From Octopus vulgaris (Eukaryota), in NCBI GenBank assembly GCA_951406725.2, contig OX597828.1, positions 34,658,001-34,722,000 of the forward strand: a DNA stretch of 64,000 bases. The letters are read 5' to 3'. The translations under genes and the position numbers were made by a program. This document shows, in pieces, positions 5,714 through 59,920 of this stretch (position 1 is its first letter; the number at the start of each line of letters is the position of its first letter). The notes beneath the pieces are model-generated. The model had not been told where the DNA came from. It did not search any database and worked only from the letters and a program-made list of their open reading frames with translations.

Positions 5714-5728
5714 CATGGGTACATTCTT

Positions 5729-6137
5729 ATTTCTTTATTCCCCACTAGGGGCTAAACATAGAGGGGACAAACAAGGACAGACAAAGGGATTAAGTCAATT
5801 ACATCGACCCCAATGCGTAACTGGTACTTAATTTATCGACCCCGAAAGGATGAAAGGCAAAGTCGACCTCGGCGGAATTTGAACGTAACGGCAGACGAAA
5901 TACCTATTTCTTTATTACCCACAAGGAGCTAAACACAGAGAGGACAAACAAGGACAGACAAACGGATTAAGTCGATTATATCGACCCCAATGCGTAACTG
6001 GCACTTATTTTATCGACCCTGAAAGGATGAAAGGCAAAGTCGACCTCGGCGGAATTTGAACTCAGAACGTAGCGGCAGACGAAATACCGCTAAGCATTTC
6101 GCCCGGTGTGCTAACGTTTCTGCCAGCTCGCCGCCTT
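5729..6137 (-). mobile_element. SINE family A, tandem dimer with 15-bp TSD
   Basis: tRNA-like head (A box ctggcagaaacgttag, B box gagttcaaattcc), central gcctttcatcctttcggggtcgataaa domain (resembles the Meta/MESC SINE domain) and LINE-like tail. TSD catgggtacattctt at 5714-5728 and 6138-6152. Dimer junction at about 5903. Confidence 0.92.
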
Positions 6138-21627: not shown

Positions 21628-22032
21628 AAAGGCGCCGAGCTGGCAGAAACGTTAGCACGCCGGGCGAAATGCTTAGCGATATTTCGTCTGCCGTTACGTT
21701 GTGAATTCAAATTCCGCCGAGGTCGACTTTGCCTTTCATCCTTTCGGAGTCGATTAAATAAGTACCAGTTACGCACTGGGGTCGATATAATCGACTTAAT
21801 CCGTTTGTCTGTCCTTGTTTGTCCTCTCTATGTTTAGCCCCTTGCGGATAGTAAAGAAATAGGCATTTCGTCTGTCTTTATGTTCTGAGTTCAAATTGCG
21901 CCGAGGTCGACTTTGCTTTTCATCCTTTCGGGGCTCGATAAATTAAGTACCAGTTTCGCACTAGGGTCGATCTAATCGACTGGTCCCCTTCCTAAAAATT
22001 TCGGGCCTTGTACCTAGTGTAGAAAAGATTAT
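21628..22032 (+). mobile_element. SINE family A dimer with two different tails
   Basis: Unit 1 ends in the LINE-like tail ...gtaaagaaata. It is followed by ggcatttcgtctg and unit 2, which has an alternative tail (aaaatttcgggccttgtacctagtgtagaaaagattatt). Confidence 0.9.
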
Positions 22033-34990: not shown

Positions 34991-35689
34991 AAAGAATATT
35001 TGCCGTCATACAACAGCATATCAAAAAAGTATGGTGAAGGAAAAATTGATATAAATGAAATGAATAGTGCCAACGGTAACGACGCCTCCACCACTCCACC
35101 ACCACCACCACCACCACCACCACCACCACTACCACCACCACCACCACCAACAATGGCATTCCGTCTTTTGCAAACGTTGTGGAGAGAAAATGGCTACGCT
35201 TCTTGAACAAGCTCTAAGGAAATAAAAATGGAAGGAACATTCTGTCACTAAAAGCAGTACCACATTGCCGATCGGATTTATCTAGAAAAACTCGAGACGT
35301 TAGGCGACATATTTTTGCTTTGTAATTCAAGAAAAAAGCTTCTATATTTCTTCGAAAAGAAAATGGTCGATGCCGCTCCTCAGGAGGGGGGGGGGCTATA
35401 GCAGTGAATACCTGGAATCTAGGGGCAGGGTCTATGGAGGTGAATAAATGTTATCTTAGATAGAGAAACAGACAATGAGACAAATAAAATGTTTGCAACA
35501 CACGCTTGCCAACAGAATTCTTTTACAATCGATGTTGCTTCGGATGTTGGCCTATGGCTTGTTATCCAATTTGTGCAACAGCACCGATATAACACTAGTG
35601 GTGGAGATGGTGATGGGGTCATTTGTACCTGCTAATCCCTCCACTCAAAATTGCTAATCTTGTACCAGTAAACTATATTATTATTATTA

Positions 35690-36050
35690 ATTCGTTTATT
35701 AGCCACAAGGACTTACATGAAATTACATAAAGTGACATACAACATAAAAGACAAAAACGAGACGATACAATGGGTTTTACAATATATAAACAGTATATAT
35801 AACGATTACAAATTTAATAATTTAAAACTCCCAATAGGGGAGGCGCCTTAAGGACCTCGTGGAAAAATCCACAAAAGTCATACGTGCCTGAACAACAGAG
35901 CAAGAACCCTTCTCCTTCTGTATACAGGTGCACGCTCAGAATTAGTCCTTTCACACTGGCCATTCTTCCAACATTCACCCACCTTTCAACAAACTTGCCA
36001 CAAGGCAACACTTCCCTCTCCACCCTCAACTTCCTTTTCAAATGAAACTT
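35690..36050 (-). mobile_element. L1/Tx1-like LINE 3' end (ORF2 C-terminus and 3' UTR)
   Basis: KFHLKRKLRVEREVLPCGKFVERWVNVGRMASVKG, homologous to 37010-37140 and 50675-50720. Tail ccttgtggctaataaa. Confidence 0.8.
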
Positions 36051-36211: not shown

Positions 36212-36254
36212 GGCTGATTGGTAGAATGGTAAAACTATCCGACAATATTTATTC

Positions 36255-37385
36255 CTGGCCCCACACCAACAATAGAATGTTCCAGTGCAAAGGCATCTGA
36301 CATATCTAAAACAACACCAGGTCCACCGACCACACCAATACTAGGGCAACCCCACCTCGCACCAAAAAGAAAGCACACACACACACACACAACAGTCAAC
36401 CACAGAGACTCCCATCAGGCCACCAACTGCACCAACAGAGTAACCTCGGTCTTATACGTTCTCACATCACTTTCCGATCGGCATTGGGATTGATTAGAGG
36501 GGGATGTGTAAATGTTCGTGGCCTAGGATCGCCCTGGAAGCAGCGGTGCCTTCTCAACGACCTTAGGTCACTATCTATGAATGTCACGGCTGTTAGCGAA
36601 ACCAGGATTCCTGACATACGTGATCTGGCCCCATTTTCGACGAATTTGAGATCTACGCATCTCTTTGTCAGCCTGAAATGTGGGTTGAGGTGGTAGCGCT
36701 GTTTATGAAAGGCCTGGATCTCGAGGTATGGATCTTGGGCCTTGCAAGTAAGTTAATGGTCCTGGATGTGAGTAGCAGCGAAGGTAGTGCTTTCAGACTA
36801 GTCACTGTGTAGTTCCCAACCGAAGCGGAGCAGCCAGATTTATTCAGATGTTTGGCGGTTTTCTTTGGAACATCTCGCTCTTTAGTTTTAGTGGGCGATT
36901 GGAACGTGTAGCAGTTTTCCTCTTTCTGATGGCTATAGTGAAAGAGGTAGTGTGGTGTACAAGATTGAAAGGACTGAAGACAGGTACTGTCCTCTTTGGC
37001 CAAACCCTCATCGACTTTTTCAAGTTTCACTTAAAAAGGAAAGTGAAAGTAGAGAGGAAAGTTCTGATCCCCCAATAGATTTATTGAAAGGTGGGTGAAT
37101 ATGGCGAGGTTGGCTCGTGTGAATGGGCCGACTCTGAACTTTCGCTTGTAAACCGGGGTAGTTGAGAAGAAGAAGAGAGGCGTCTGCTGAGGTGCAACTG
37201 ACTGGTCGGGATAACCAGGCTGTATGGGGTTCGCCTTTCGGGGAATTTTTACTGTTAAATTGTTTTTATATTTGTTTTTTTTTTTGTTACTTATTGTGTA
37301 CACGGCATTGTGCAACACCCCACCTGTCCCTTGTATTGTCCCTATTTGTTTTGTATTCGGCCCTTGTGGCCAATAAAACAAAGTA
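36255..37385 (+). mobile_element. Internally deleted L1/Tx1-like LINE (endonuclease start fused to ORF2 C-terminus)
   Basis: APE endonuclease N-terminus CVNVRGLG...VTAVSETR from 36484, a GDWN-like stretch at about 36893, then directly VKEVVWCTRLKG...FFKFHLKRKVKVER and the 3' tail ggcccttgtggccaataaaa. Confidence 0.82.
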
Positions 37386-37446: not shown

Positions 37447-37719
37447 ATTATTATTATTATTATTGCTATCATTCTTATTGCCATCTCGCTGACTCAACTT
37501 TCTTTGCGTAAAAGAGTCCAATGTCAACGAAACCTTTCCTTCCTGTTCGGTCGATAAAATAACTACCAGTCACGTGTGGAGATCTATTCAGGATGCTACA
37601 CACATTATTCCATACAAATTTGATGGCTTTGTATCATTATGAGAAATCAATAGAACAGTTTGAAATCTAAGAGTGTTTAAAATAAAAAGAAAAAAATAAT
37701 ATAGCTTACGTAGGACATA

Positions 37720-44870: not shown

Positions 44871-45399
44871 TCTTATTATCTATATCTAAGAACTAGATAT
44901 AACACTATGTACCAACTGTCACGCTAGTGATACAGCTAATACGGTACGCCAACATATTTTCCAGTGTAAATGTGTTATTCCCAACGACTTTTTCTTGTTA
45001 TTTTAATCTTTTTTTCTGGTTGTTTGTATTATTGTTTCACACGTAGACATTAACCTTTCTTCCTTTAAAAACAGAAAAGAAATTATATTGACATCATATA
45101 AATTTAGAAACTGCGATAGAACGTGAAATAATTATTGTTTTGAATGATGAAACTTGAAGCAAATAAATCTATAAATAGTCCTTTCTATTATTGGAACAAG
45201 GTCTGAAATTTGTGGGGAGGATGTCAGTCGATTGCAGCGACTCCAGCACTTGACTGGTATACATTTTTATCAACCCCGAAATGATGAAAGGTAAAGCCGG
45301 TCTTGGCAGAATTTGAACTCAAAACTCGGTGTGCTAACGGTTCTTTTCTAAGGCACAATGCCCGAAATTCTAAACATGTTAAGTAATACAAGTAATGAG

Positions 45400-46780
45400 T
45401 AATATGAGTATTTTTATCCATTTCGTAGAACTCGTAGTTCTTATATTTTTCAAAAAGTTCTGCAATCCTAGCGGCTGATTTTTTCGCTTTTGTTTCTCTT
45501 ATTAAATCTTCATTATTGCTGTATAACGCGACTATCCCGCTGTCTTCTGCTTCCTTCCTTACTATTTTTGGTTTGTCTCTTCGCAGTTTTTTTTTTTTTT
45601 TTGTTTTGGTCTTAGTTTGACCTATTTTTGTTGATTTGAGCTTTCCATTTTTCTCTTGTTGTTAGTTGCTTACTTTTCTTCTGTTTTCTCTCTCTCTCCT
45701 CCTTACCATCGGTTTCTTCCTCACTGTCTCTACAGTGTTTTTTTTTTATATAGCCCAGCTGACCACACTGGAAACATCGGGGCTTACGCCCCTCGACGAA
45801 TACGTTAACAAAATTCCTCCCGAATTTCTATTTTCTCCGGTAACTGATCTAAAATTGACTGTTCTGATTTATTAGGAGGTGAAACGTTTGACCGGTCCAA
45901 TAAGCCTTTTCTGTGACGGTAGTCTGAAGGAGTGTTATATTATCTTCCTTTTTTACCAGGACTGCTGCCATCAACCACATAGGGTCGACTTGAGGTGGGA
46001 TCCTTGGTATACGTATCTTTAACGTCCTCATTCCCATATATATTGGAATTAAAACAACCTCCTGCGTTTCTAAAGATTAAACTGAGTGCACATTTGTAGT
46101 TTCTATATCTTTTAGTTGTACTTCGATAGTACCAAACTTCTTTCCTCTGGCTAGGTATATGATATCCTGCCAGATGGGTTTCAAGCACTTCTCAACTTTC
46201 TCTTCGCTCACTCGATCAATTTTTTGTTTCTTTTAGACAGTAAAATTTAAAAATAATTGTTTTTCTTTTTTCTAACATTAATAGTTCTTCCGGGGGTTGA
46301 ACTTTCGCAACACCGTCCTCAATTCTTCTCATATCTTTGTACTTTATCAAGTCATATTTGTTTGTCGACAGCTGGCGGGTTCCACCTCCAGCCACCGACG
46401 CAAAACTTCTCTTTTGTTTATTTTCTTCTGTTTGAAGGCTTTTCACGTCAATATTCCTCTTTGCAACAGTACACAGTGATGGTTAGGGAAATTCATTTTC
46501 AGAAGAATCCGAAACATCGCCAAATATTAAGCTTTCAATCTTTTTTGCCTCCTTGTCGGTTGACCACTCTTCGCCAGACGAAGTTACACTTTTCGGCATC
46601 TTGCCAGCAATTAATGTTTCCCCCACAGGGGAAAACACACGATAGTTTTCGAACGGAGGCTATCACACAAGTAATTATAACAGGAACAATAATTATAACA
46701 GGAAATAACTCAAAAACAGTCGATAGAAACTTGCACTTACTTGCACTCCAATAATAATTACCAATAAATCCAAATTCACA
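45400..46780 (-). mobile_element. LINE ORF1 (gag-like, CCHC) element, decayed, no ORF2 seen
   Basis: ATG at 46599 (MPKSVTSSGEEWSTDKEAKKIESLIF), then SFASVAGG, GKKFGTIEV, IPPQVDPMWL, YWTGQT and VNVFVEGRKPRCFQCGQLG across frameshifts. Confidence 0.82.
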
Positions 46781-47217
46781 CAGACGAAATACCTATTTCT
46801 TTACTACCCAAAAAGGGCTAAACACAGAAGGGACAAACAAGGACAGACAAGCGTATTAAGTCGATTATATCGACCCCAGTGCGTAAATGCTACTTATTTA
46901 ATCGACCCCGAAAGGATGAAAGGCAAAGTCGACCTCGGCGGAATTTGAACTCAGAACGTAGCGGCAGACGACATACCTATTTCTATTTCTTTAATATCCA
47001 CAAGGGGCAAAACACAGAGAGGACAAACAAGGACAGACAAATGGATTAAGTCGATTACATCAACACCAGTGCATAACTGGTACTTAATTTATCGACCCCG
47101 AAAGGATAAAAGGCAAAGTCAACCTCGGTGGAATTTGAACTCAGAACGTAACGGCAGACGAAATACGGCTACGCATTTCGCCCGGCGTGCTAACGTTTCT
47201 GCCAGCTCGCCACCTTA
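46781..47217 (-). mobile_element. SINE family A tandem array directly 5' of the ORF1 element
   Basis: Two units, each tail joined to ggtat(t/g)tcgtctg (junctions at about 46793 and 46977). Confidence 0.92.
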
Positions 47218-48204
47218 AATAAAATTATAACTAATAGCGTGGAAATGATAGTCTAACATTTATACGCTATTTGTATCTATCTATTTCGAGTTTCACTATT
47301 ATAAAGAAGAATCATACTTTCTTTGTTTTTATGTAAGTATAGTTGACGATATTATTCATGTCATCTGAACAAATATTTCTTAAACATAAAATGTCTACAT
47401 CGTATTCTCTTTTCTCCGAAGGTAGAAAGTCGGCAAGCATTATTATGGAAATCGTATTCCAATGCCATCACCGCTGCAGTGTCGTAGAAAATATCTGCCA
47501 TTCAAGCGGAAAGGCGTAACAAATTTCTTTTCCCAAATGGGAAACACATATTTCAATTGAATTCGACCTCTTCTTTATTGATACAGGGTTAGCAAAATAA
47601 ACACAAATCTTACGATGAAGAAAACAAACATTGTAACAAGACAAATCAGGAGCTGCTTCAATACTCATGACTCAGCAATAAAATCGCCACCAAAAATAAT
47701 AATGGCTTTCTAAAACAAAGGAGACAAGACCACACTTTTGATGAGAGGGTATGGTTGAGTATACCCACACCAGAATTCGGCTGGCACATGTTTTATCGAT
47801 CCTGAAACAAGTAAACACAGTGCTCAATCTGAGAATTGATCCCTCGACATTATGATGGTGAGACGAACTTCCACTAACCAATAAGTCATGCATTTTCACA
47901 ATGGCTAAAAATAAACGGAAACAAATAAGACATGCGACAAAAACAAATCAAACAATATTTAATAAATGACAAATAGCAGACGGATGGGTTCTTGGTTTCA
48001 GGAGAGAATTGGATACAAATTCCTGGTAGTATTTATTCTGCTTCTTTATCTTTCGAATTCAAATCATACAGGACATTTTGTTTTTATTGCCTCCGCCAAA
48101 ACGGAAAGTACAATTCAAATCAGAAAGATATGACTGCAGTGGTTTCTCGGAATTTTGTCCGACGCTTTATCAACTCTGACAAGCCAATGCCTTTGTTTTA
48201 CGTT

Positions 48205-48381
48205 TAATATGTGGCAAGAAGTTTGTTTCCCAGCGACATGGTTCCGGGTTCAATTCTACTGCGTGTCACTTTGAGCTGATGCTTTCTGGTATTGCCTCAG
48301 GTCGACCAAAGCCTTGTGACTGCATTTGCTAGACGGGAACTGAAATAATCATATATATATATATATATGTGTGTGTGTATG

Positions 48382-48422
<41 letters not shown>

Positions 48423-48587
48423 TTGTATGTGTGTGTGTGTGTGTGTGTGTCTAATGCGTGTGTGCGCGTGTCTCGCCACCGCTTCATAACAGGTGTCGGT
48501 GTGTCTATGACCCTGTAATTTCAGCAAAAAGACCGTTAGAATAAGTACTACACTTCAATCATAATAATCGATTCTTTTCAATAATAA

Positions 48588-48637
<50 letters not shown>

Positions 48638-48725
48638 GGATTTTAATAGTTACGAGGGTTGATTAGTTCGACTAAAATTCTTCGAAGCAGTGCCCCAGCA
48701 TGGCCTCAGTCTAATGACATATGCG

Positions 48726-48775
<50 letters not shown>

Positions 48776-48930
48776 CTTATATGATTGGCTTTCGCATAGT
48801 TTCTATCAACGAAATTCACTCAAAAGATATTGGTCAGTCTATGGTTGTAGTAGAAGACACTTGCCTTAGAAGCGGCGCCGTGAGACTAAACACGAACCCA
48901 CGTGATCGCAAAGCGAGCTTCTTAAGCGCA
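48205..48930. mobile_element. Degenerate SINE B copies (plus 48205-48720; minus 48785-48930)
   Basis: Homology to intact copies. Confidence 0.75.
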
Positions 48931-49695
48931 CATCTCTGCAAATGGAGTGGACTTCAGTTGTTTCAGTCGACGCCTTTACATGTCGAACATTGCTTAGCCT
49001 CGTTCTGAACTAATGCTGTTTCATTTAACGCGGTTAAATGCTACAGCTTTCTATTTTTTGAAATACTTCAGCGTCTCTTATTCATCTTTTAATAGCTCAG
49101 ACTTTTTTGCTCTTTTTTTTTTGTATTGATAAAATTTTGATTTCATTTTTTAATCTTATACTTTTTATATTAACGGAAATTTTAAACGTCAGATTAAATT
49201 CTTTAAAATGTTCTGCTTTGACCTTCAACTTTGTGGATTCGAATCCTGCTGGATTTGATTTTTATTTTATTCCCGGATTTCCATCCAATCTAAATTATTG
49301 TTCCTTTTAATAAAGTTAAGAGTGTTAACTCACGGCAAAACATCAAGATGTTAGTTTAATTTTTCAATATCTTATAAATTTACATGGGAATTAAACCTTC
49401 TTGTGCTCTAGCTAGCTAGAAGATTATTTCTTGCTCGGAAGCGCTCATGTAAAGCCTTAATCCACCTTAGTTAGTTCATGCGGATAAATTTAGTGTATTA
49501 TCCGCTACTCTAATAATATTGCTGCGCCAGTGTTCACAGATTTTGTGCATTCGATTGGCACAAAAAAGTGTGATGTCATATGTTGCAACGAGATAATGCT
49601 TTCAAACGATGATTTGTAAGTAAATAAACATAAATTAAATAATTGCAAAAGTGAACGAAATATCAATAGAAATGATTGCAAATGATACTTTTGTA

Positions 49696-49948
49696 TTACA
49701 GAAATGTACTTGCATAGCAAGTGACCTGATCTGAGATCGTGTGCTGGAACGAAAACAATTGCAGCGTGGAAGGTGTTTATAAGCCATTTAAGAAACACAC
49801 AAAAACCGTTAGATTCATTTCAACATTTAAATTTAATTTGTCAAAATATTTTCGTCGCTTTAACAAATTAAATTTAAATGTTGAAGTGAATCTAACGGTT
49901 TTTGTGTGTTTCTTAAATGGCTTATAAACACCTTCCACGCTGCAATTG
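49696..49948 (-). mobile_element. Short Penelope-like insertion with inverted pLTR copy and 13-bp TSD
   Basis: 87-bp inverted arms (49755-49841 / 49863-49949, one mismatch). TSD tgatacttttgta at 49683-49695 and 49949-49961. The loop holds a hammerhead 3' half on the minus strand (cGAAAATATTTtgac). Confidence 0.78.
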
Positions 49949-50194
49949 TGATACTTTTGTAGTAATAATCAAATTCAATGAAAATACGGGAGAAAGTCAA
50001 AATTTTGATATACATTTCTAACAGAGGCCCAAACCATATATTTTACAAGAGAAGTTTCGTTGACGTAATCGTTCCTAATAGTTTAATAAGTTAATGATTT
50101 CTAGGACTCCATAAATATGACAGGCAACGTTGACCTCGGCAGGATTTGAAATCAGAACGTAAAGTTACAGAAGTGAATACTACTAAGCTACGAA

Positions 50195-50362
50195 TTCTTT
50201 TCTACTTTAGGCACAAGGCCCAAAATTTTGGGGGAGGTGGCCAGTCGAATAGATTGACCCTCAGTACGCAACTGGTACTCAATTTATCGACTCCGAAAGG
50301 AGGAAAGGAAAAGTCGACCTCGGCGGAATTTGAACTCAGAACGTAAAGACAGACGAAATACC
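50195..50362 (-). mobile_element. SINE family A body starting at the GGTATTTCGTC site
   Basis: Minus strand reads ggtatttcgtctgtctttacgttctgagttcaaattccgccgagg...; it carries the alternative tail. Confidence 0.9.
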
Positions 50363-51112
50363 AATTTCTTTATTGCCTACCGGGAGCCAAACATAGAAAT
50401 GAACAACTGATGGGATCAGTAAAGCGATATGATTTTACATATAATGTGACTTAAAAAATTTAAATACAATATTAAAAAATCGAATGGAATTAACAATACA
50501 AAGACAATACAAATGAAGAGATGATCAAGCAACGCTCCGACCCCACAAGCCCCGATCTACCGGTGGTACCTTTTTTTTTGTTCTTTTTTTTTCGTCTATT
50601 CACACGGTTCCTTGCATGCACAACACTCGTGCAAAATGCTTCCATCTCTTTTGGAACGTACACTCCGAGAGACATCACTTCTCCAGCCACAGCTTCCTTT
50701 TCAAATTAAAAGTAAAAAATGATCGTAAATTGTGTCCAGAGATAAAGTTGCCTGTCCTAATTCCTTTTATCCTAGTCTTCCATACTGCCTCTTTCGCTAT
50801 TGTTACAACCGTGAGAAAACAATTCTTACCTTCGTTCGTTAAAACTCCCGAAGGGTCAATTTTTATAATTGACTCAGTCGACAGTCGTACTCTTCCTTCG
50901 CCGGACAACAGGTGTTCAGCATAAGCCCACATTTCAGATATCTCCGGACACTGGACAATAGCATGAGGGACGGTTTCCCTGTCCCCTCCCCCTCGCATCT
51001 TGGACAGGTCGGAGACTGACGCTCACCGTGTCTTGCGAGCTTATCCCAAACGGGCAAGACATCTCTGTAGCATTGCCAGATTAAGGATTTTGGGAAGTTT
51101 CCAATGGAGGTA
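50363..51112 (-). mobile_element. L1/Tx1-like LINE 3' end (ORF2 zinc finger and 3' UTR), 5'-truncated
   Basis: LPVWDKLARHG...TCPRC...ETVPHAIVQCPEISEMW (C-terminal CCHC of L1/Tx1 ORF2), then AKEAVWKTRIKG and FNLKRK. Tail ggtaggcaataaagaaatt. Confidence 0.85.
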
Positions 51113-51313
51113 ATCGATTTGTTAAAATTGCCGAAATGCTCGAAATTTCAGACGAAATATCTTACAAACTATAGAATTTTCTCAATAAAGCCAAGAGAAA
51201 ATGATGTTTTATAAACACATTCTACCAGTATACGAAGTTTAAAACTTTTTTAGTTACCTAGAAATTATGTTACAAAGTGCCGTTCAAAAGGAAAAGATCC
51301 AAATTTTAATATA

Positions 51314-51347
<34 letters not shown>

Positions 51348-52099
51348 CACATTCGCACATATATATGCACATAATGCACGCATACACACATATACACACG
51401 TACCTACACACACACTAGCACAGGTTCGCACATATACCTCCAACACACAGTACACATACAGACACGTACACAATTACACACACATGGGCACAAACACACG
51501 CGCACACACGCACGTAAGCACACACACACATACACACCTATACATATACATACAATATATGCATACAAGCACACACACATATATACGCACACATAAATGT
51601 ACACACAACTACACGCACATACATACACACACGCAAATGAACCCACACATACCTCCCATACACTCACTCATACATACACGCACACAATTATACATACATG
51701 TATACACACATACGCACATACAAGCACACATACGCAAAGTAAAGCATGTTGTAAGCATAAATATTTAGCAACATTTAATATTCTAAACTTTAAAGTAAAA
51801 AAAAATTAATTTTTAAACGTAAAATCTTTAAAACTTTTTGAAAATACGTTCTGGATTAGATCCACTGAATACTTATACACAAATCTTTAATTATTTCTTT
51901 GGATAACAATATATCAGTAAAACAAATGGAAATTCGCATAGGCTATCATTTGCATGATTAGCTAAAAATTCACCTGTCAATCCTTTACATTTCTTATTTA
52001 ACCTGGTAAAATCCTCTTAGACTTTAGTGCGAAGTACGTTCGCTGCAGTGTCAAGACGTTATGTCTTTTGTGTGAAAAAAAAAAAATGTCGTAATGAGA

Positions 52100-53700
52100 A
52101 CGAATCGCGCGAGGCGCTTGCTGCTGCTTGCCGTTGTTTTTTTCTCATTTTAGGGGAAAGAAAAGATGTCGTCCCTCCGTCATGGATACCTATGCGAGGG
52201 TTGCTGCGACAAGAAGTGTCGCATCACTGGGTTTTAAAAAGAAAATGTTACAATTGATAAAGAAGAAATATAGAGATGTGAACAGTACGTGAGAAGGGAG
52301 GGAGAAAGCATCAAGCTGATCCCTCCAGCAGAAACAACAGAGGATAAGAACCTTAAAAAGATTATATATAAACTCAAGATACGAACACAAAGAAAATAGT
52401 ATGGATATCAGAAGAAATAGAAAAGTGTCTTGGAGATGTAATGGAAAGAGCAACATACGCCAGCAGAGGGAAAAGTTCGGTACGGTGGAGGTGAGGTTTG
52501 CCACAAGTGAAGAGGCGGCCTCGCTATCTACCGCTATCTTAAGAACAGAAAGGTTTACAATGTTACCCCTTTACAAAGGAAGAAGAAGCATAAGGATTAA
52601 GATTCCGAACATACCGCCGGAGATAAAAACGGAATGGCTGGTGACAGCGATTCTAGGTTCTACAAAAGACGAACCCGAACTTGGTACAGTTACCGAAACT
52701 AATATAGTGAACTGGAAGGGATTCAGTGTCGAGATGTGGCTTATGGCCACAACAGAAGACATAGAGAGAATCCCCTTCCAGATAGAAGTGGAAAATGAAC
52801 CAACGATAAACATTATTGTCGAAGGAAGGCGACCCAACTGTCATCTGTGCGGAACTAGAGGACATATAAGGACTGAGTGTCTATTATATGAATTTACACA
52901 AAGTAAAGAGACAACAGAAAAGGAATAAAAAGAGCAAAAGAAACAATAGCGACAAGACAAAGTTCAGAGAAAAAAAACAAGAAGGACAACAAGAAGAGAG
53001 AAATGGAAAAACCAAAGGAAGAGAGCAAAGGAGCTACCAGCCCCAAAAGTAGAAAAAGATCGAAGCCGAGGGAAGACTCAGCGGAAACAAAAGGTAATGA
53101 TACGTTTAAATTTTATGGAGCATTTGTAATATACAAAAGATCCTATGAAATAGAGAAAAAAGGATCGAGAATGAAGAGAGTAACAAGAGTAAGGATGGGA
53201 ACCAAGTATGACGAAGACGAGATTGGTGTTTTAGTCCCTGCGGACAGTTACGCCAATTTCATCGAGGTCGCCAGAAAGAAAATACAAGGAGATAAGAGGT
53301 GTCGGTTGATGGATCATCCACCTCCCGTAATGGATTATCAGGAGCTGAAAAGAAAAATAGAATATCTCTGAAATTTATGAAAAAGTGGAAAATGTTACGA
53401 AAAACTATGTTTGTGAAATTTAATTTTTTGAACTGTGAACTTCAATTGTAATTTTGTGAAATTGATATGTAATTTTGTAAAACTCAGTTATAATCTTTGA
53501 GAAAATCAATTACGGGAAAAGACAGACAAAATGTAACCACTCCACTTCGGGGTTCGAGTGAGCATTGCGCCTCATTATAATATCTTATAATTTATTCTTT
53601 TTTAATTTCTTCGTCTTTATTCATTCTCTTTTGTTATTTTATGTTCCCCAATTGTACTGTCCCCATCTATGTATAGTCCTTTATGGATAATAAATAAACC
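52100..53700 (+). mobile_element. ORF1-only LINE derivative with LINE-type 3' tail
   Basis: ATG at 52182 (MDTYARVAA), ORF 52401-52928 with a CCHC knuckle, ORF 53003-53371, then about 330 bp of UTR ending tgtccccatctatgtatagtcctttatggataataaataaa. Confidence 0.8.
52182..53371 (+). pseudogene. LINE ORF1p-like nucleic-acid-binding protein (RRM-like region and zinc knuckle), disrupted
   Basis: EKFGTVEVRF, IKIPNIPPEI and INIIVEGRRPNCHLCGTRGHIRTEC (Cx2Cx4Hx4C). Frameshifts near 52290-52400 and a stop at 52928. Confidence 0.85.
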
Positions 53701-55029
53701 TAGACTCAAAGAACGAAGTCCGTCAGATTCTGTCACTTATTCTTCGATACTCAAAAATTGAACTTTCACCAACTGAACTGGCGCCATGTAGTGCGTTACT
53801 GGATTTTACCTCGAGAAAGGAACTCTGAGGGCTGAATTTCGACTAAAGCTTTTCTGACTGAGGTATGGCGTAATACTTTCAATCGTTTCTTTTAATTTAT
53901 TTCCTAACTTCATAATACCCATTATATAGGTCAGGTGTTTATTCTTTATGCCTATAATCTTACATTTCATTTTTATGTCTATATTTTATCATGAAACTCT
54001 TAACATAAATATGTGAATATTCGTATGGAATAATACCTCATGCGCTACATTTGAATTTGCTTGTCTGAATGTTTTAAGACAAATATCTGAAATTTTTTAT
54101 CATATACCACATTTTATTAATCCTTAGCTCATACGGAGAAAAAAACAGTTGTACTATATACTTAAAATCTCATTTCTAAATTTTTTATGCCTAAGATATT
54201 TATTTTCTATTCTGGACTGAGGTAACTCGTCCAGAGGTTATAGAGAAAGAAATAGAAGAGTGCCATAGTTAACATGTGAAATTGGTTGAACGATATTTCG
54301 GCATCTAAGATATTTATTTTCTATTCTGGTTTTTATATATATCTCATTATTTCAATACTTTCTATTTGTATCAATTTATTTTAACCCAAACATAATACGA
54401 TCCTTGTACTAACGAAAGAACAAGCATGTCCTCTGGAACTTTTATCTTCCACCGGTGTTTGTAATAGATGGTGACATGTGCGATGGTTTTGCCATCATCT
54501 TATATTTTAGAGAAATTGGAAGCCCCGAATGTAAGCCACCACTTTATGCATAATTCAATAATTATAGTTCTCTATTTCCAACTGAAAATTCTTTTTCTTC
54601 TCGTTCAGCTACAGTTATAAGACGCATTCTTGTCTGTCACTTGACAAAGCTTTTTTTCTCCAGCATTCACCACTTCACCTCGTTATGGTTAAAGTCCTTA
54701 CCGATTTTTTTCACTGTCCCGTTTTGTTAGCAGCTTTGACGCTCCACGTATCTCAAATTTTATTTAATTTGCTTTGGGGGGAGCAATTGCTTTGACGAAG
54801 ACGCATCTTGTTACGATGCTTGCAATGCTAAATAGATAAAACTGCCAACAACTGAGAAAGGGTTGTTTTATATGTTGCCTTCTCTCTATAGTTCTCTATT
54901 TATAATTGAAATTCTTTCTTTCATCTCCTTCAGCGTCGAGTCGAGTTGTCTGTAATAGTGACACCAGTGCCATAGCGCTGACTGTGGACTGGTAGTGGTG
55001 AACAGTCACCGCAATGGCTCTCATTGGGG

Positions 55030-56522
55030 TAACGAACATTTATACAACCAATGTGAATAGACGTGACTTGCCTTTTTGATCGGGGCGTCCTGTGGAGAGG
55101 GACTCTCCACCTTTTCTTGACTTAGGGTCGGAGATGGCAAGCCTTCAAACATAAATTGGTGAAAATCCAGTCTCAATGTTGAGACCGATTTTCTATGTGT
55201 TAAACAACATGTACGTTTTTTCGTCCAATTCATAAAATTCGTAATTTGTGTATTTATCTGACAGTTCAATTAATCTAGTTGCTGATTTTTTTGGTTTTTA
55301 TTTCCCGCATTAAGTCTTCGTTTTTGCTGTGTAGTGCAGCTATTCCTCTGTTCGTCACCCCCTCCGCCTTCCTCGGTCTGTCTCTCTTGGCTTTTTTTTT
55401 TTGTCTCGACTCACTCTGCTTTTGCTGGTTCGAGCCTTCCATCTTCCTTTTGTTGTTTATTTTTCCTTCTATTTTTCTCTCTCTCTCTTTCTTCCTCTTC
55501 GCCGTCTGATTCATCTACACCTTCTTTACAATATTTTTTAATGTGACCCATTTGGCCGCACCGGAAACGTGGGGCTTACTCCCCTCAGCAAAAATATTTA
55601 TAACTTCCTCCCCTACTTCCACGATTTCTGGGATCTGTTCTAAATTTTTTTGGTCAGCCTGCAGTATGAGGTTAAGCGTTTGACCAGTCCAATAGGTATT
55701 CTCTGTGACGGTAGCCAGCAGGAGGTTAATATTATATTCCCTGTTTGCCGCCATCAATCACATAGGGTTTACTCCGGGTGGAATTCTTGATATTCTCACT
55801 TTTGATGTTCTCATTCCCATATAAATTGGGATTAACATTGTGTCTTCCGACTCTAAAGATTTTATAGTGTTTTTGTGCCGTTTCTGCATTCTTGAACCTC
55901 ATCACGATGGTTCCAAACTTCTTCCCTTTGGCTAGATACGTAATGCCCTGCCAGATGGGGTTTAGACATTTTTGCTCACATATCTTATCAATTTTACGAG
56001 CTTTTAAGCAGAATATCTTGAAAATAATATTTTTTTCCTCCGTTAATTCTTCTTCTGGTATTTCCACTTTTACTATTCCATCTTGTTCTGTTATCATATC
56101 TTTGTATTTTAGTAATTCATTTGTCAGTTGAAAGCTGTCGCGTTCCACTACCAGCTGCTGATACAAAACTTTTCCTTCATTAATTTTGGATGGTCCTTTC
56201 TTCTGTCTTTCTTTTGGTGTTCGTAACTCTTGGTAATGCCGGAAATTCGCTTTCCGACACACCAGAAACGTTATCAAAAATTAAGCTTTCTATTTTCTTT
56301 GCTTCTCGCTCAATCGATGATTCATCACCCGACGAAGAAGACAAACTTTTTGGCATATTACCGGCAATTAATGTTTTCCCCCACAGGGGAAAACCACAGA
56401 TAGCTTTCGAAAGAAAACTATACTACAATTTTTTTTCAACAATAAGTCCAACAATAGGCACAAGAGATATAACAACAGAAACTTACGAACACACTCCAAC
56501 AATAAATTTTCAATAACAGGCG
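55030..56522 (-). mobile_element. LINE ORF1 (CCHC) element, decayed, no ORF2 seen
   Basis: ATG at 56356 (MPKSLSSSSGDESSIEREAKKIESLIF), then GKKFGTIVMRF, YWTGQTLNL and INIFAEGSKP..FRCGQMGHIKKYC. Confidence 0.85.
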
Positions 56523-56755
56523 TACGAAATACCAATTTCTTTACTACCCACAAGGGGCTAAACACAGAGAGGACAGACAAACGGATTAAGTCGATTATAT
56601 CGACCCCAGTGTGTAACTGGTACGTAATTTATCGACCCCGAAAAGATGAATGGCAAAGTTGACCTCGGCGGAATTTGAACTCAGAACGTAACGGCAGCCG
56701 AAATACTGCTAAGCATTCCGGCTGGCCTGCTAACGATTCTGCCAGCTCGCCCACC
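56523..56755 (-). mobile_element. SINE family A directly 5' of the ORF1 element
   Basis: Tail ...gtagtaaagaaatt joined to ggtatttcgt, then ORF1 element 5' UTR. Confidence 0.9.
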
Positions 56756-57620
56756 TGACTAAGCAACAAATTGTCAATGTCGGTAGGACGTTGGACAGAA
56801 TGTCTCGTAGTATTTGTTCTGCGTTCAAATCTGGTCGAGGTCAATATTACTTATATGTTGTCAGGGTCGGTGGGTAAAAAGTAACAATACAGAGCGGTGC
56901 ATTCGCAGAATTGAAAGCATGTCAAACCGGATGCCTTACAGAATTTGTTCCGGTTCAGAGGTCAAGCCCAGCCATGCTCTTCTAAGGTGAAAGACAATAT
57001 ATCATCCGGCATCGTGGAGAACTTTAGCAAAAGCCCTAATGTTGCAAACTTTCAGTCTAGATCACTGGTTTGAGGACACTTCTCCCCACTTACTTCCAAC
57101 ATTTCTAGGGAGATTGTAAAGGGTCATGAGCACTGCCTTCTCTCCTCAGAAAAAGATAAAATAAACATATCCGTTAATCTTCCACATGTCACTCCTCAGA
57201 AATTTGAAACTCTTGAAAATTAGTTGAAAGAATCTTAAACTGGGAATGAATCTTCACAATTCAAAAGACAATAAACAGACATGGCCGCCATGTTTGACAG
57301 GTACACTAACTTTAATAAATAAGTAAATAAATAATGTAAATTGATGGTGTATTTTGAATTAATGATTGGCCGGTGGTCGAATGGCGGGATCAAATGAAAT
57401 TATAGTAAGGAATAATTATATACATGTTATTCGCTTTCAAAAATTGAAATTGTTTTATGATTTCGTCAGAGGAGGAAGTTGCAGCGCCTATTATCTTATA
57501 CAAGGGGTGGGAAAGAGGAGAAAATAGCACGATTCTTAGATTATCCTCAGACTGGGTACCTAGTTTAAATATCTACAACAAAGTGGACCTTGGTTAACAG
57601 AAAAAATCCTTTTGGCTCGT

Positions 57621-59634: not shown

Positions 59635-59920
59635 AATAATCCTTTCTACTCTAGGCACAAGGCCTGAAACTTTTGGGAGGGGACAGTAGATTACATCAAC
59701 CCCAGTGTTCAACTGGTACTTATTTCATTGACCCCGAAAGGATGAAATACAAAGTTGATATCTGCGGAATTTGAACCCAGAACTTAAAAGGATTCGTTTA
59801 TAAAATGTTTATCGACAATTATTTTTATCATAATTGAATCGATGAGGCGGCAAGCTAGCAGAATCGTTAGCGCGCCACACAAAAATACTGATCGGCATTT
59901 CGCCTGTCTTTATGTTCTGA
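59635..59920. mobile_element. SINE A fragments
   Basis: Homology to intact copies (minus 59640-59790; plus head 59845-59920). Confidence 0.75.

Follow-up and report, generated by a model that had tools for sequence, protein, structure and literature searches.

LINEs and SINEs that share a preferred target inside another mobile element have been described in crocodilians, where Tx1-Mar LINEs and SINEU have a common preferred site in a Mariner DNA transposon; tandem SINEU copies sandwich a target-site duplication (TSD), and the preference is reported as partial, 13-90% by family, a LINE being counted as target-specific when >20% of its flanks are of one sequence type (Kojima, 2015, PMC4494074). 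Other site-specific LINEs treated in the cited sections of two papers are Tx1L, found in Tx1D of Xenopus, Keno, in U2 snRNA, and Kibi and Koshi, in microsatellites (PMC4494074, PMC4640811). For R2, "anneal" 5' junctions have been described: where the template includes target sequence from upstream, the junction is seamless and the shared part is not duplicated (PMC11331408). The genome of O. vulgaris is reported to contain 56 Mb of L1-Tx1 sequence in 80 families, 13 with recent activity, with SINEs making up 11.6% (PMC13282606); L1-Tx1 and the tRNA-CORE and tRNA-Deu SINE families are annotated in Octopus (PMC13282606, PMC8967140), and OR1 and OR2 SINEs are named in the octopus literature (PMC4824008, PMC4758252). 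The cited sections of these four papers make no mention of target sites, self-insertion or shared tails, and a search of published papers returned no description of a SINE-targeting Tx1 element or of a self-inserting octopus SINE.

Here we analyze 64,000 nucleotides of O. vulgaris DNA (hereafter the window; contig OX597828.1, positions 34,658,001 to 34,722,000), in which two LINE 5' remnants, E46 and E56, meet SINE sequence at a common junction (Table 1). We think it probable that a site-preferring LINE of L1/Tx1 type and its partner SINE, SINE A, both insert at position 47 of the SINE (GGTATTTCGT).

Table 1. Features at and around the LINE-SINE junctions, in window coordinates.
Feature	Coordinates	Strand	Description
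Possible SINE head, decayed	36212..36255	+	before L36; weak
Related LINE L36	36256..37385	+	internally deleted: endonuclease start 36505, ORF2 3' end, shared tail; then (TAT)n
Decayed B-type SINE body	37480..37646	+	resumes at about position 47 after L36 and (TAT)n
LINE 5' remnant E46	45365 (approx.)..46783	-	5'UTR and broken ORF1 (ATG 46599), CCHC knuckle; 3' part lost
GGTATTTCGT target motif before E46	46784..46793	-	SINE positions 47-56; possibly 3 bases longer (CTG)
SINE A unit 2	46794..46977	-	starts at SINE position 47; A-type tail
SINE A unit 1	46978..47216	-	head, body, A-type tail
Target SINE remainder	50195..50362	-	from position 47; B-type tail
Candidate TSD, 3' copy	50353..50372	-	same 20 bp as 56543-56524
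LINE 3' remnant L51	50363..51102	-	ORF2 C-terminus with zf-RVT-like motif, 3'UTR, SINE A-like tail
Non-LINE interior	51103..55031		3.9 kb; multi-copy repeat 54850-55031, ORF1-type element, CA-rich microsatellite
LINE 5' remnant E56	55032..56523	-	5'UTR, broken ORF1 (ATG 56356), spacer, first ORF2 endonuclease codons (55046-55032)
Candidate TSD, 5' copy TAAAGAAATTGGTATTTCGT	56524..56543	-	core GGTATTTCGT 56533-56524
SINE before E56	56534..56754	-	more diverged head and less diverged A-type body/tail
SINE A dimer	5728..6137	-	second unit begins at position 47 (5904)
SINE dimer	21629..22030	+	A-type unit, then B-type body from position 47 (21862)

On the minus strand, a SINE tail ending in AAAGAAATA is followed by GGTATTTCGT (46793-46784) and then by E46; similarly, a SINE tail ending in AAAGAAATT is followed by GGTATTTCGT (56533-56524) and then by E56, so that both LINE 5' ends come after a SINE tail and neither after a bare head. 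The initial annotation had placed both elements directly behind a SINE A tail plus this motif despite their divergence, and this holds: the two remnants, which belong to different LINE subfamilies, can be aligned from their first bases with 65.7% identity over 1372 columns (blastn; 121/161 in the 5'UTR and 786/1129 in ORF1 by global alignment), while the SINE units before them are closer to each other, with 155/174 bases identical (89%). The motif is not the end of the SINE, as had been thought, and instead lies at position 47 of its head. By simple arithmetic (four other tail+GGTATTTCG-type junctions, 128,000 strand positions), the chance of landing within 3 bp of such a site is ~2e-4 per element; the counts for this junction come from the 64-kb window and two to three loci outside it. 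Beyond the repeats, the 400 bp upstream of the two SINEs (207/371 identical) and the downstream flanks (206/353) agree only at the level of shuffled sequence (58 ± 2% and 58%, respectively), which supports the suggestion of independent insertions at one SINE site and excludes the old segmental duplication named there as the counter-case. Copying of one SINE-plus-LINE locus, or chance, therefore has a negligible probability even though the loci share a strand and are separated by 10 kb, and E56 has closer relatives elsewhere (82% amino acid identity; many contigs at 90-99%). The ORF1 of E46 is 51-56% identical in amino acids to its relative P0002, and the 3' side of E46 adjoins a decayed SINE body (45325-45219).

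E46 and E56 derive from the 5' part of a LINE with two ORFs and are not the ORF1-only elements they were first taken for. E56 ends ...CINVR, having reached endonuclease codons, and at least six contigs in three public DNA runs continue from there into ORF2, where their codons resemble the endonuclease start at 36505; in E56 and L36 this putative start is assigned by its motif. These outside copies come from a comparison of window positions 54850-56550, without most of the SINE and without E46, with 4 of 24 runs, the listing covering 32 of its 2578 pieces, whose ends are given without letters, and 24 of its 461 loose ends. Among the matches listed, all four contigs extending as far as the LINE 5' end run on to 56530-56534, which does not distinguish a head from a tail further upstream; with 26-33 letters different from the window, they probably stand for two to three other loci. 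None of the runs listed for the locus was an RNA run, a result that carries no information on expression. The E56 family thus has two ORFs, with a putative apurinic-type endonuclease opening ORF2. A further endonuclease reading of 55031-54900 was rejected, as outside copies show a different repeat there. A layout of ORF1, 3'UTR and tail is that of HAL1-type elements, and a separate element at 52 kb has it, its ORF1 passing directly into 3'UTR and tail without ORF2; for E56 this type is ruled out because its family has ORF2, and E46 breaks off before that point.

Several protein features bear on the clade. The CCHC knuckle passes the Pfam cut-off in the ORF1 relatives P0001, P0003, P0016 and P0094, there is no Pfam match in P0002, the closest relative, and the ESM Atlas neighbours of ORF1 are CCHC/RRM proteins; an ORF1 with an RRM-like region and a CCHC knuckle is not exclusive to Tx1. 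The ORF2 C-terminus of L51 resembles zf-RVT (PF13966, E=0.036, which misses the cut-off; a frameshift interrupts the motif), and its third match in the ESM Atlas is a zf-RVT cluster (49% of members) with a score of 0.92. Pfam gave no match for the 64-aa endonuclease piece at 36502, no reverse transcriptase (RT) domain was found in the window, and no longer relatives of the ORF2 C-terminal piece were found. We take the two-ORF octopus LINE to be likely of L1/Tx1 type, and SINE A and these LINEs probably belong to families already catalogued in Octopus. Searches with the LINE 5'UTR motif in public metagenome contigs, with the SINE tail in public metagenome and prokaryote genome contigs, and with the SINE body in viral contigs returned no match.

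The initial annotation proposed that the SINE might supply Pol III read-through transcription or travel with ORF1 as a composite, in which case SINE A plus GGTATTTCGT would be the LINE's own 5' end and promoter. A tail rather than a bare head before both window copies agrees with this, as does the motif in the other copies among the listed contigs, and SINE-like U1/U2 heads are present, according to the cited account, in some of the Tx1-Mar families of crocodilians (PMC4494074). We nevertheless consider a composite quite unlikely from the sequence at hand: the SINE parts are 89% alike vs 70-75% for the LINE parts, two SINE units precede E46 vs one before E56, the 56-kb SINE has a head and a body of unequal divergence, and SINE remainders follow LINE 3' ends. 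Runs of 4-5 T terminate Pol III transcripts, and since such runs lie on the sense strand ahead of both start codons (46716, 46635; 56417, 56393), read-through into ORF1 is unlikely; the T runs also count against a composite.

The SINE itself appears to insert at the same position. All four SINE bodies that directly follow a tail start at the same profile position, and a second head is never present in the arrays of the window; because two of the four carry the other, B-type tail, tandem duplication is disfavoured as the origin of the arrays. The tails are shared between SINE and LINE: the L51 tail is 77% identical to the SINE A tail over 48 bp, and related tails occur on L36, L35 and the 52-kb element. 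In a census with a tail profile derived from the same 12 tails that were counted, six run directly into position 47 (five of seven SINE A units, and L51), a seventh (L36) reaches it after a (TAT)n run, and five are off site (5728, 27838, 59151, 53698, 35690), which indicates that the preference is partial or confined to some subfamilies. As a small and non-random sample, position 47 is occupied by 2/2 5' ends of the E46/E56 ORF1 group and by 1/5 non-SINE-A tails directly, plus one after (TAT)n.

Position 47 lies at the border of the loop and 3' arm of an 8-bp hairpin, between an A-box-like TGGCAGAA and a B-box-like GAGTTCAAATTCC in the SINE head, both candidate boxes picked out by eye against the box consensus. 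ARAGORN predicted no tRNA gene for the SINE, Rfam gave no tRNA match over 45000-57500 and, like ARAGORN, no structured-RNA family for the SINE, and the head folds no better than its shuffles (z -0.29); inspection by eye for a self-cleaving ribozyme gave no fit to the HDV or hammerhead layout at position 47. The junction at a hairpin loop and the lack of a second head in any array would suit an account without DNA target preference, in which RT stalls, or SINE RNA is cut, at the hairpin and jumps between SINE and LINE RNA templates build the arrays in single events; such jumps are described for these elements in work cited in PMC4494074. This account leaves unexplained both GGTATTTCGT before the LINE 5' end and its repeat behind the LINE 3' end. 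Moreover, the B-type bodies are more diverged (17/117 and 12/113 differences) than the A units preceding them (6/164 and 8/174), which, though partly a subfamily difference, fits a pre-existing genomic target. We regard template jumping as unlikely.

Insertion into a genomic target is most visible at the LINE 3' end. L51, on the same strand as E46 and E56, ends at 50363 and runs into GGTATTTCGT and the rest of a SINE. The motif before E56 had been proposed as the 5' copy of a TSD, and a matching 3' copy does appear behind this end (50362-50353), within an exact 20-bp repeat (56543-56524 and 50372-50353); since the shared tail would account for ten of the 20 bases, only one base of the candidate TSD is private. 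E56 and L51 are, in our moderately confident reading, two ends of one insertion that lost its ORF2 interior; against this, they could not be tied together by subfamily and are separated by 3.9 kb of non-LINE sequence (51103-55031), with no long terminal inverted repeat found to bound it and, by inspection, no transposase-like long ORF outside the 52-kb element. The 3' end of E46 is absent from the window. The SINE before E56 differs from the SINE A consensus at 9/56 head and 6/164 body positions (Fisher p=0.0035; 5/40 and 4/142 with CpG excluded, p=0.026), a contrast that comes from a single copy among five A-type units with heads; at 24 kb the contrast runs the other way, and at 21.6 kb the head is A-like despite a B-type founder. 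The more diverged head suggests an order of events at 56 kb in which an older B-type SINE received the LINE first and the SINE A copy came later.

At a second locus, L36 provides the only case of head, LINE and body in the window. The decayed SINE-like head reported before this LINE at 36255 is weak, its local alignment being at background level (1683/4302 windows score as high; with an ungapped profile it takes rank 279 of 127,904), and the SINE body behind the LINE (37483-37589) is supported, its score of 60 being reached by 0/500 shuffles. The SINE bodies that resume from position 47 behind the LINE at both 3' ends, 50363 and 37385, imply that the LINE itself occupies the site, and they tell against the notion that only SINE A targets GGTATTTCG, the first bases of the LINE being the motif by chance and SINEs landing later before randomly placed LINEs. 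SINE A copies, 87-95% alike, are indeed younger than the LINE subfamilies, and the listed outside contigs show the motif and not what precedes it; we judge this notion very improbable all the same.

For the preferred reading, a site shared by LINE and SINE, we propose the following course of events. The LINE endonuclease would nick just before GGTATTTCGT, target-primed reverse transcription would set the 3' tail against GGTATTTCGT, and a staggered second cut would duplicate 10-20 bp. SINE A, which has its 3' tail in common with the LINE, is likely served by this machinery too and would therefore land in other SINE heads, that is, in copies of itself; because its cDNA contains the target sequence, it could anneal in register with the upstream target and leave a head, a unit and another unit with no second head. 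The target site would outlive each insertion, so that SINE and LINE copies would stack, and a whole SINE, GGTATTTCGT and a LINE would result regardless of insertion order. More tentatively, and with somewhat less than even confidence, we suggest a closed loop in which a lineage of octopus LINEs has as its target the promoter region of the SINE family that it mobilises, the SINE amplifies into itself and forms arrays kept in register, and every LINE that inserts separates the A box of a SINE promoter from its B box; the SINE would have acquired the LINE's tail yet kept the LINE's target in its head, making the parasite the landing pad.

That a LINE can home to another mobile element is established in principle, and TE-targeting Tx1 elements are known; if the proposal is true, the partner SINE's own head would be a new target class for site-specific LINEs. 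It would also predict clustered and nested insertions, an endonuclease with a defined site in very many copies, and chimeric SINEs with head and body of unequal age, a hazard for dating bursts and counting families, and it would explain head-plus-repeated-unit SINE arrays in a genome reported to be ~12% SINE (PMC13282606). As with Tx1-Mar and SINEU in the published account, the octopus LINE and its partner SINE would share, partially, a preferred site in an abundant mobile element, with a TSD sandwiched by tandem SINE copies; unlike that pair, whose target is Mariner, the octopus elements would target the SINE's own head, so that SINE insertions would fuse in register with it, and the octopus SINE shares the LINE's 3' tail. 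Tx1L, Keno, Kibi and Koshi resemble the octopus LINE in an apurinic-type endonuclease and a multicopy target, and differ from it in having, as described in the cited sections, no SINE target (PMC4494074, PMC4640811). The seamless R2 junction resembles the proposed formation of SINE dimers, where annealing would be an analogous step, while R2 itself differs in its restriction-like endonuclease and its 28S rDNA target, as described in the cited part of that work (PMC11331408).

Two LINE 5' remnants on the minus strand, at 46 kb (E46) and 56 kb (E56), each start right behind a SINE tail followed by GGTATTTCGT (46793-46784 and 56533-56524), the arrangement that the initial annotation had described for these two ORF1 elements. 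As it had also stated, the two are diverged in DNA: they can be aligned from their first bases through ORF1 at 65.7% identity (blastn), and because their in-frame segments are 76-86% (E56) and 51-56% (E46) identical to the Octopus protein P0002, they represent different subfamilies. Stops and frameshifts break ORF1 in both copies. The ORF1-like pieces match Octopus proteins (XP_036361568.1, 63%; CAI9726939.1, which is P0002, 82%), with remoter relatives in O. bimaculoides, O. sinensis and Argonauta, and the DNA of the window is animal-type and rich in microsatellites. Four Octopus gene models matching this ORF1 (P0002, P0009, P0032 and P0045), with names such as 'EPM2A-interacting 1-like' and 'ABC transporter F family member 4-like', look like mis-annotated LINE ORF1; P0045 begins with translated SINE sequence.

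The outer flanks of the two loci are unrelated (207/371 matching upstream and 206/353 downstream, against a baseline of 58+/-2% from shuffles of the upstream flank). The proposal that SINE and ORF1 move together as a composite element is quite improbable, because the preceding SINE units match at 155/174 positions vs 121/161 in the LINE 5'UTR and 786/1129 in ORF1 (global alignment), because the number of SINE units differs between E46 and E56, and because SINE bodies lie behind LINE ends at the 3' junctions. Pol III read-through into ORF1, the other suggestion made for this arrangement, is also unlikely, since T4-T5 runs lie ahead of both start codons, and T runs end Pol III transcripts.

Coordinates of LINE, SINE and other repeat features in the window
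Feature	Position (strand)	Remarks
E46, LINE 5' remnant	46783-45365 (-)	
E56, LINE 5' remnant	56523-55032 (-)	
L51, LINE 3' remnant	51102-50363 (-)	ORF2 C-terminus and 3'UTR
L36, related LINE	36256-37385 (+)	(TAT)n on both sides
Related LINE 3' end	35685-36050 (-)	inside (ATT)n run, tail to tail with another repeat; off SINE site
ORF1-type element, 52 kb	52040-53700 (+)	ORF end 53371, then 3'UTR and shared tail at 53698; off SINE site
SINE with B-type tail	21862-22030 (+); 50362-50195 (-); 40403-40190 (-); 45325-45180 (-)	tail unrelated to A
SINE copy, 24 kb	24055-23886 (-)	
SINE head joined at 5' hairpin arm to body end	61280-61205 (-)	internal deletion of ~90 bp
Decayed SINE pieces	56780-56972 (+); 59845-59920 (+)	opposite orientation, adjoining SINE copies (56754, 59788)
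Multi-copy repeat	54850-55031	adjoins 3' break of E56
Near-perfect palindrome	49760-49945	~180 bp, MITE-like; Rfam miRNA matches below threshold

The shared motif GGTATTTCGT corresponds to positions 47-56 of the SINE consensus, and a centroid fold places it in an 8-bp hairpin, as the final base of the loop plus the 3' arm, although the complete head does not fold better than shuffled sequence; it is flanked on either side by motifs resembling A and B boxes. All four SINE bodies directly behind a tail begin at position 47 (5904, 21862, 46977 and 50362). One head and body type carries two tails, A and B. Since the B tail is present on the bodies at 21862 and 50362, these arrays did not arise by tandem copying of a single unit. 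This second, unrelated tail suggests a second partner LINE.

Among the 12 tails in the window, from which the census profile was itself built, six pass directly into position 47 (five of the seven SINE A units, those with the A-type tail, and L51), and five lie off the site (5728, 27838, 59151, 53698 and 35690). The remaining tail, that of L36, reaches position 47 after a (TAT)n run, where a decayed B-type body aligns from 37483 onwards (score 60, 0/500 shuffles). At the other end of L36, the decayed head reported before about 36255 is weak: its profile rank is 279 of 127,904, at roughly the predicted register, and its local alignment score is at background. Of the 26 records listed from public DNA runs, four extend as far as the 5' end of the LINE, and each of these runs on to 56530-56534, with 26-33 letters differing from the window; two of them resemble one locus. 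In a listing that gives 32 of 2578 pieces, without letters, these four records thus probably represent two or three outside loci, covered as far as the motif.

We consider it probable that a site-preferring LINE and its partner SINE A insert at GGTATTTCGT and that their copies stack. A site-preferring endonuclease would nick in front of GGTATTTCGT, target-primed reverse transcription would join the tail to the motif, and a second cut would lead to a duplication of 10-20 bp. SINE A, with its tail in common with the LINE, would be taken to this site as well; its cDNA includes the target and can anneal with the upstream target, so that no second head would remain. Since the site would survive each insertion, copies could stack. 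For R2 templates with upstream rDNA, annealing at an upstream target has been demonstrated (PMC11331408). Template jumping without a DNA target would account for the SINE dimers but leaves the motif on both sides of the LINE ends unaccounted for, and we regard it as unlikely.

The tail preceding 50362, not recognised in the initial annotation, is a LINE tail and not a SINE tail: the tail at the end of L51 has 77% similarity to the SINE A tail, and behind it come GGTATTTCGT and the body of a B-type SINE. Moreover, TAAAGAAATTGGTATTTCGT occurs exactly at 56543-56524 and again at 50372-50353, with a T in both copies where the six other SINE A tails of the window end in A. E56 is without a 3' end and the 5' boundary of L51 without a SINE head, and the two lie on the same strand in the right order. 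It is probable that E56 and L51 form opposite ends of a single insertion, although 10 of the 20 repeated bases derive from the tail that LINE and SINE share, and they are separated by 3.9 kb of unrelated sequence for which no replacement mechanism was recognised. Two separate insertions would instead give the window one further independent use of the site. At the multi-copy repeat next to E56, contigs of all four public runs step back by 48 bases and carry 22 extra letters, and individual contigs of runs X5 and X6 link 54934 with the SINE junction at 56528.

Compared with the SINE A consensus, the SINE in front of E56 has 9/56 differences in its head and 6/164 in its body (p=0.0035; with CpG left out, 5/40 and 4/142, p=0.026), a contrast found in one among five headed A-type copies, and its head is the AGAATCG variant that older copies have. 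Such a pattern would be expected if E56 had entered an older B-type SINE and a copy of SINE A had later fused with it in register. At 21.6 kb the head is A-like, and the 24-kb copy shows the opposite of the 56-kb pattern, with a diverged body (27/112 differences) behind an A-like head (2/56), so other causes may also conserve or exchange SINE heads.

E56 ends immediately past the codons CINVR. When four public DNA runs were compared with 54850-56550 (536-831 contigs per run), six contigs from three runs departed from the window at 55032-55034, and hand translation of their ends gave GLMSSWKQG-like codons, near the GLGSPWKQR found after CVNVR in the LINE at 36505. Since these ends resemble an endonuclease start, the family, judged by its codons, is a two-ORF LINE of which the window copies are 5' remnants. 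The single CCHC knuckle of the ORF1 relatives, the endonuclease-type start and, where ORF2 ends, a weak match to zf-RVT (E=0.036; also an Atlas lead) point to a putative place in the L1/Tx1 group. In L36 the endonuclease start is joined to the ORF2 3' end within ~450 bp, a large internal deletion. With the related 3' end at 35685-36050 lying inside an (ATT)n run, relatives may prefer microsatellites. The 52-kb element (36% amino acid identity to P0002, 63% to XP_036361568.1) has no ORF2, an ORF1-only layout that we take to be HAL1-like.

L1-Tx1 families have been catalogued in O. vulgaris (PMC13282606), in the consulted portions of which we found no statement on their targets. We found no description in the literature of such a SINE-head-targeting LINE, which Repbase or Dfam family reports could already record. 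According to the parts of PMC4494074 consulted, Tx1-clade LINEs home to other mobile elements, as Tx1L does to Tx1D and Tx1-Mar, with SINEU, to Mariner-N4_AMi, where tandem SINEU-3 copies flank the TSD, and some Tx1 families have SINE-like heads. The octopus case resembles these pairs as a LINE homing to a mobile element, which is known; unlike Tx1L and Tx1-Mar as described there, its apparent target is the head of a SINE with the LINE's own tail, and the use of a partner SINE's head is the feature that would be new here.
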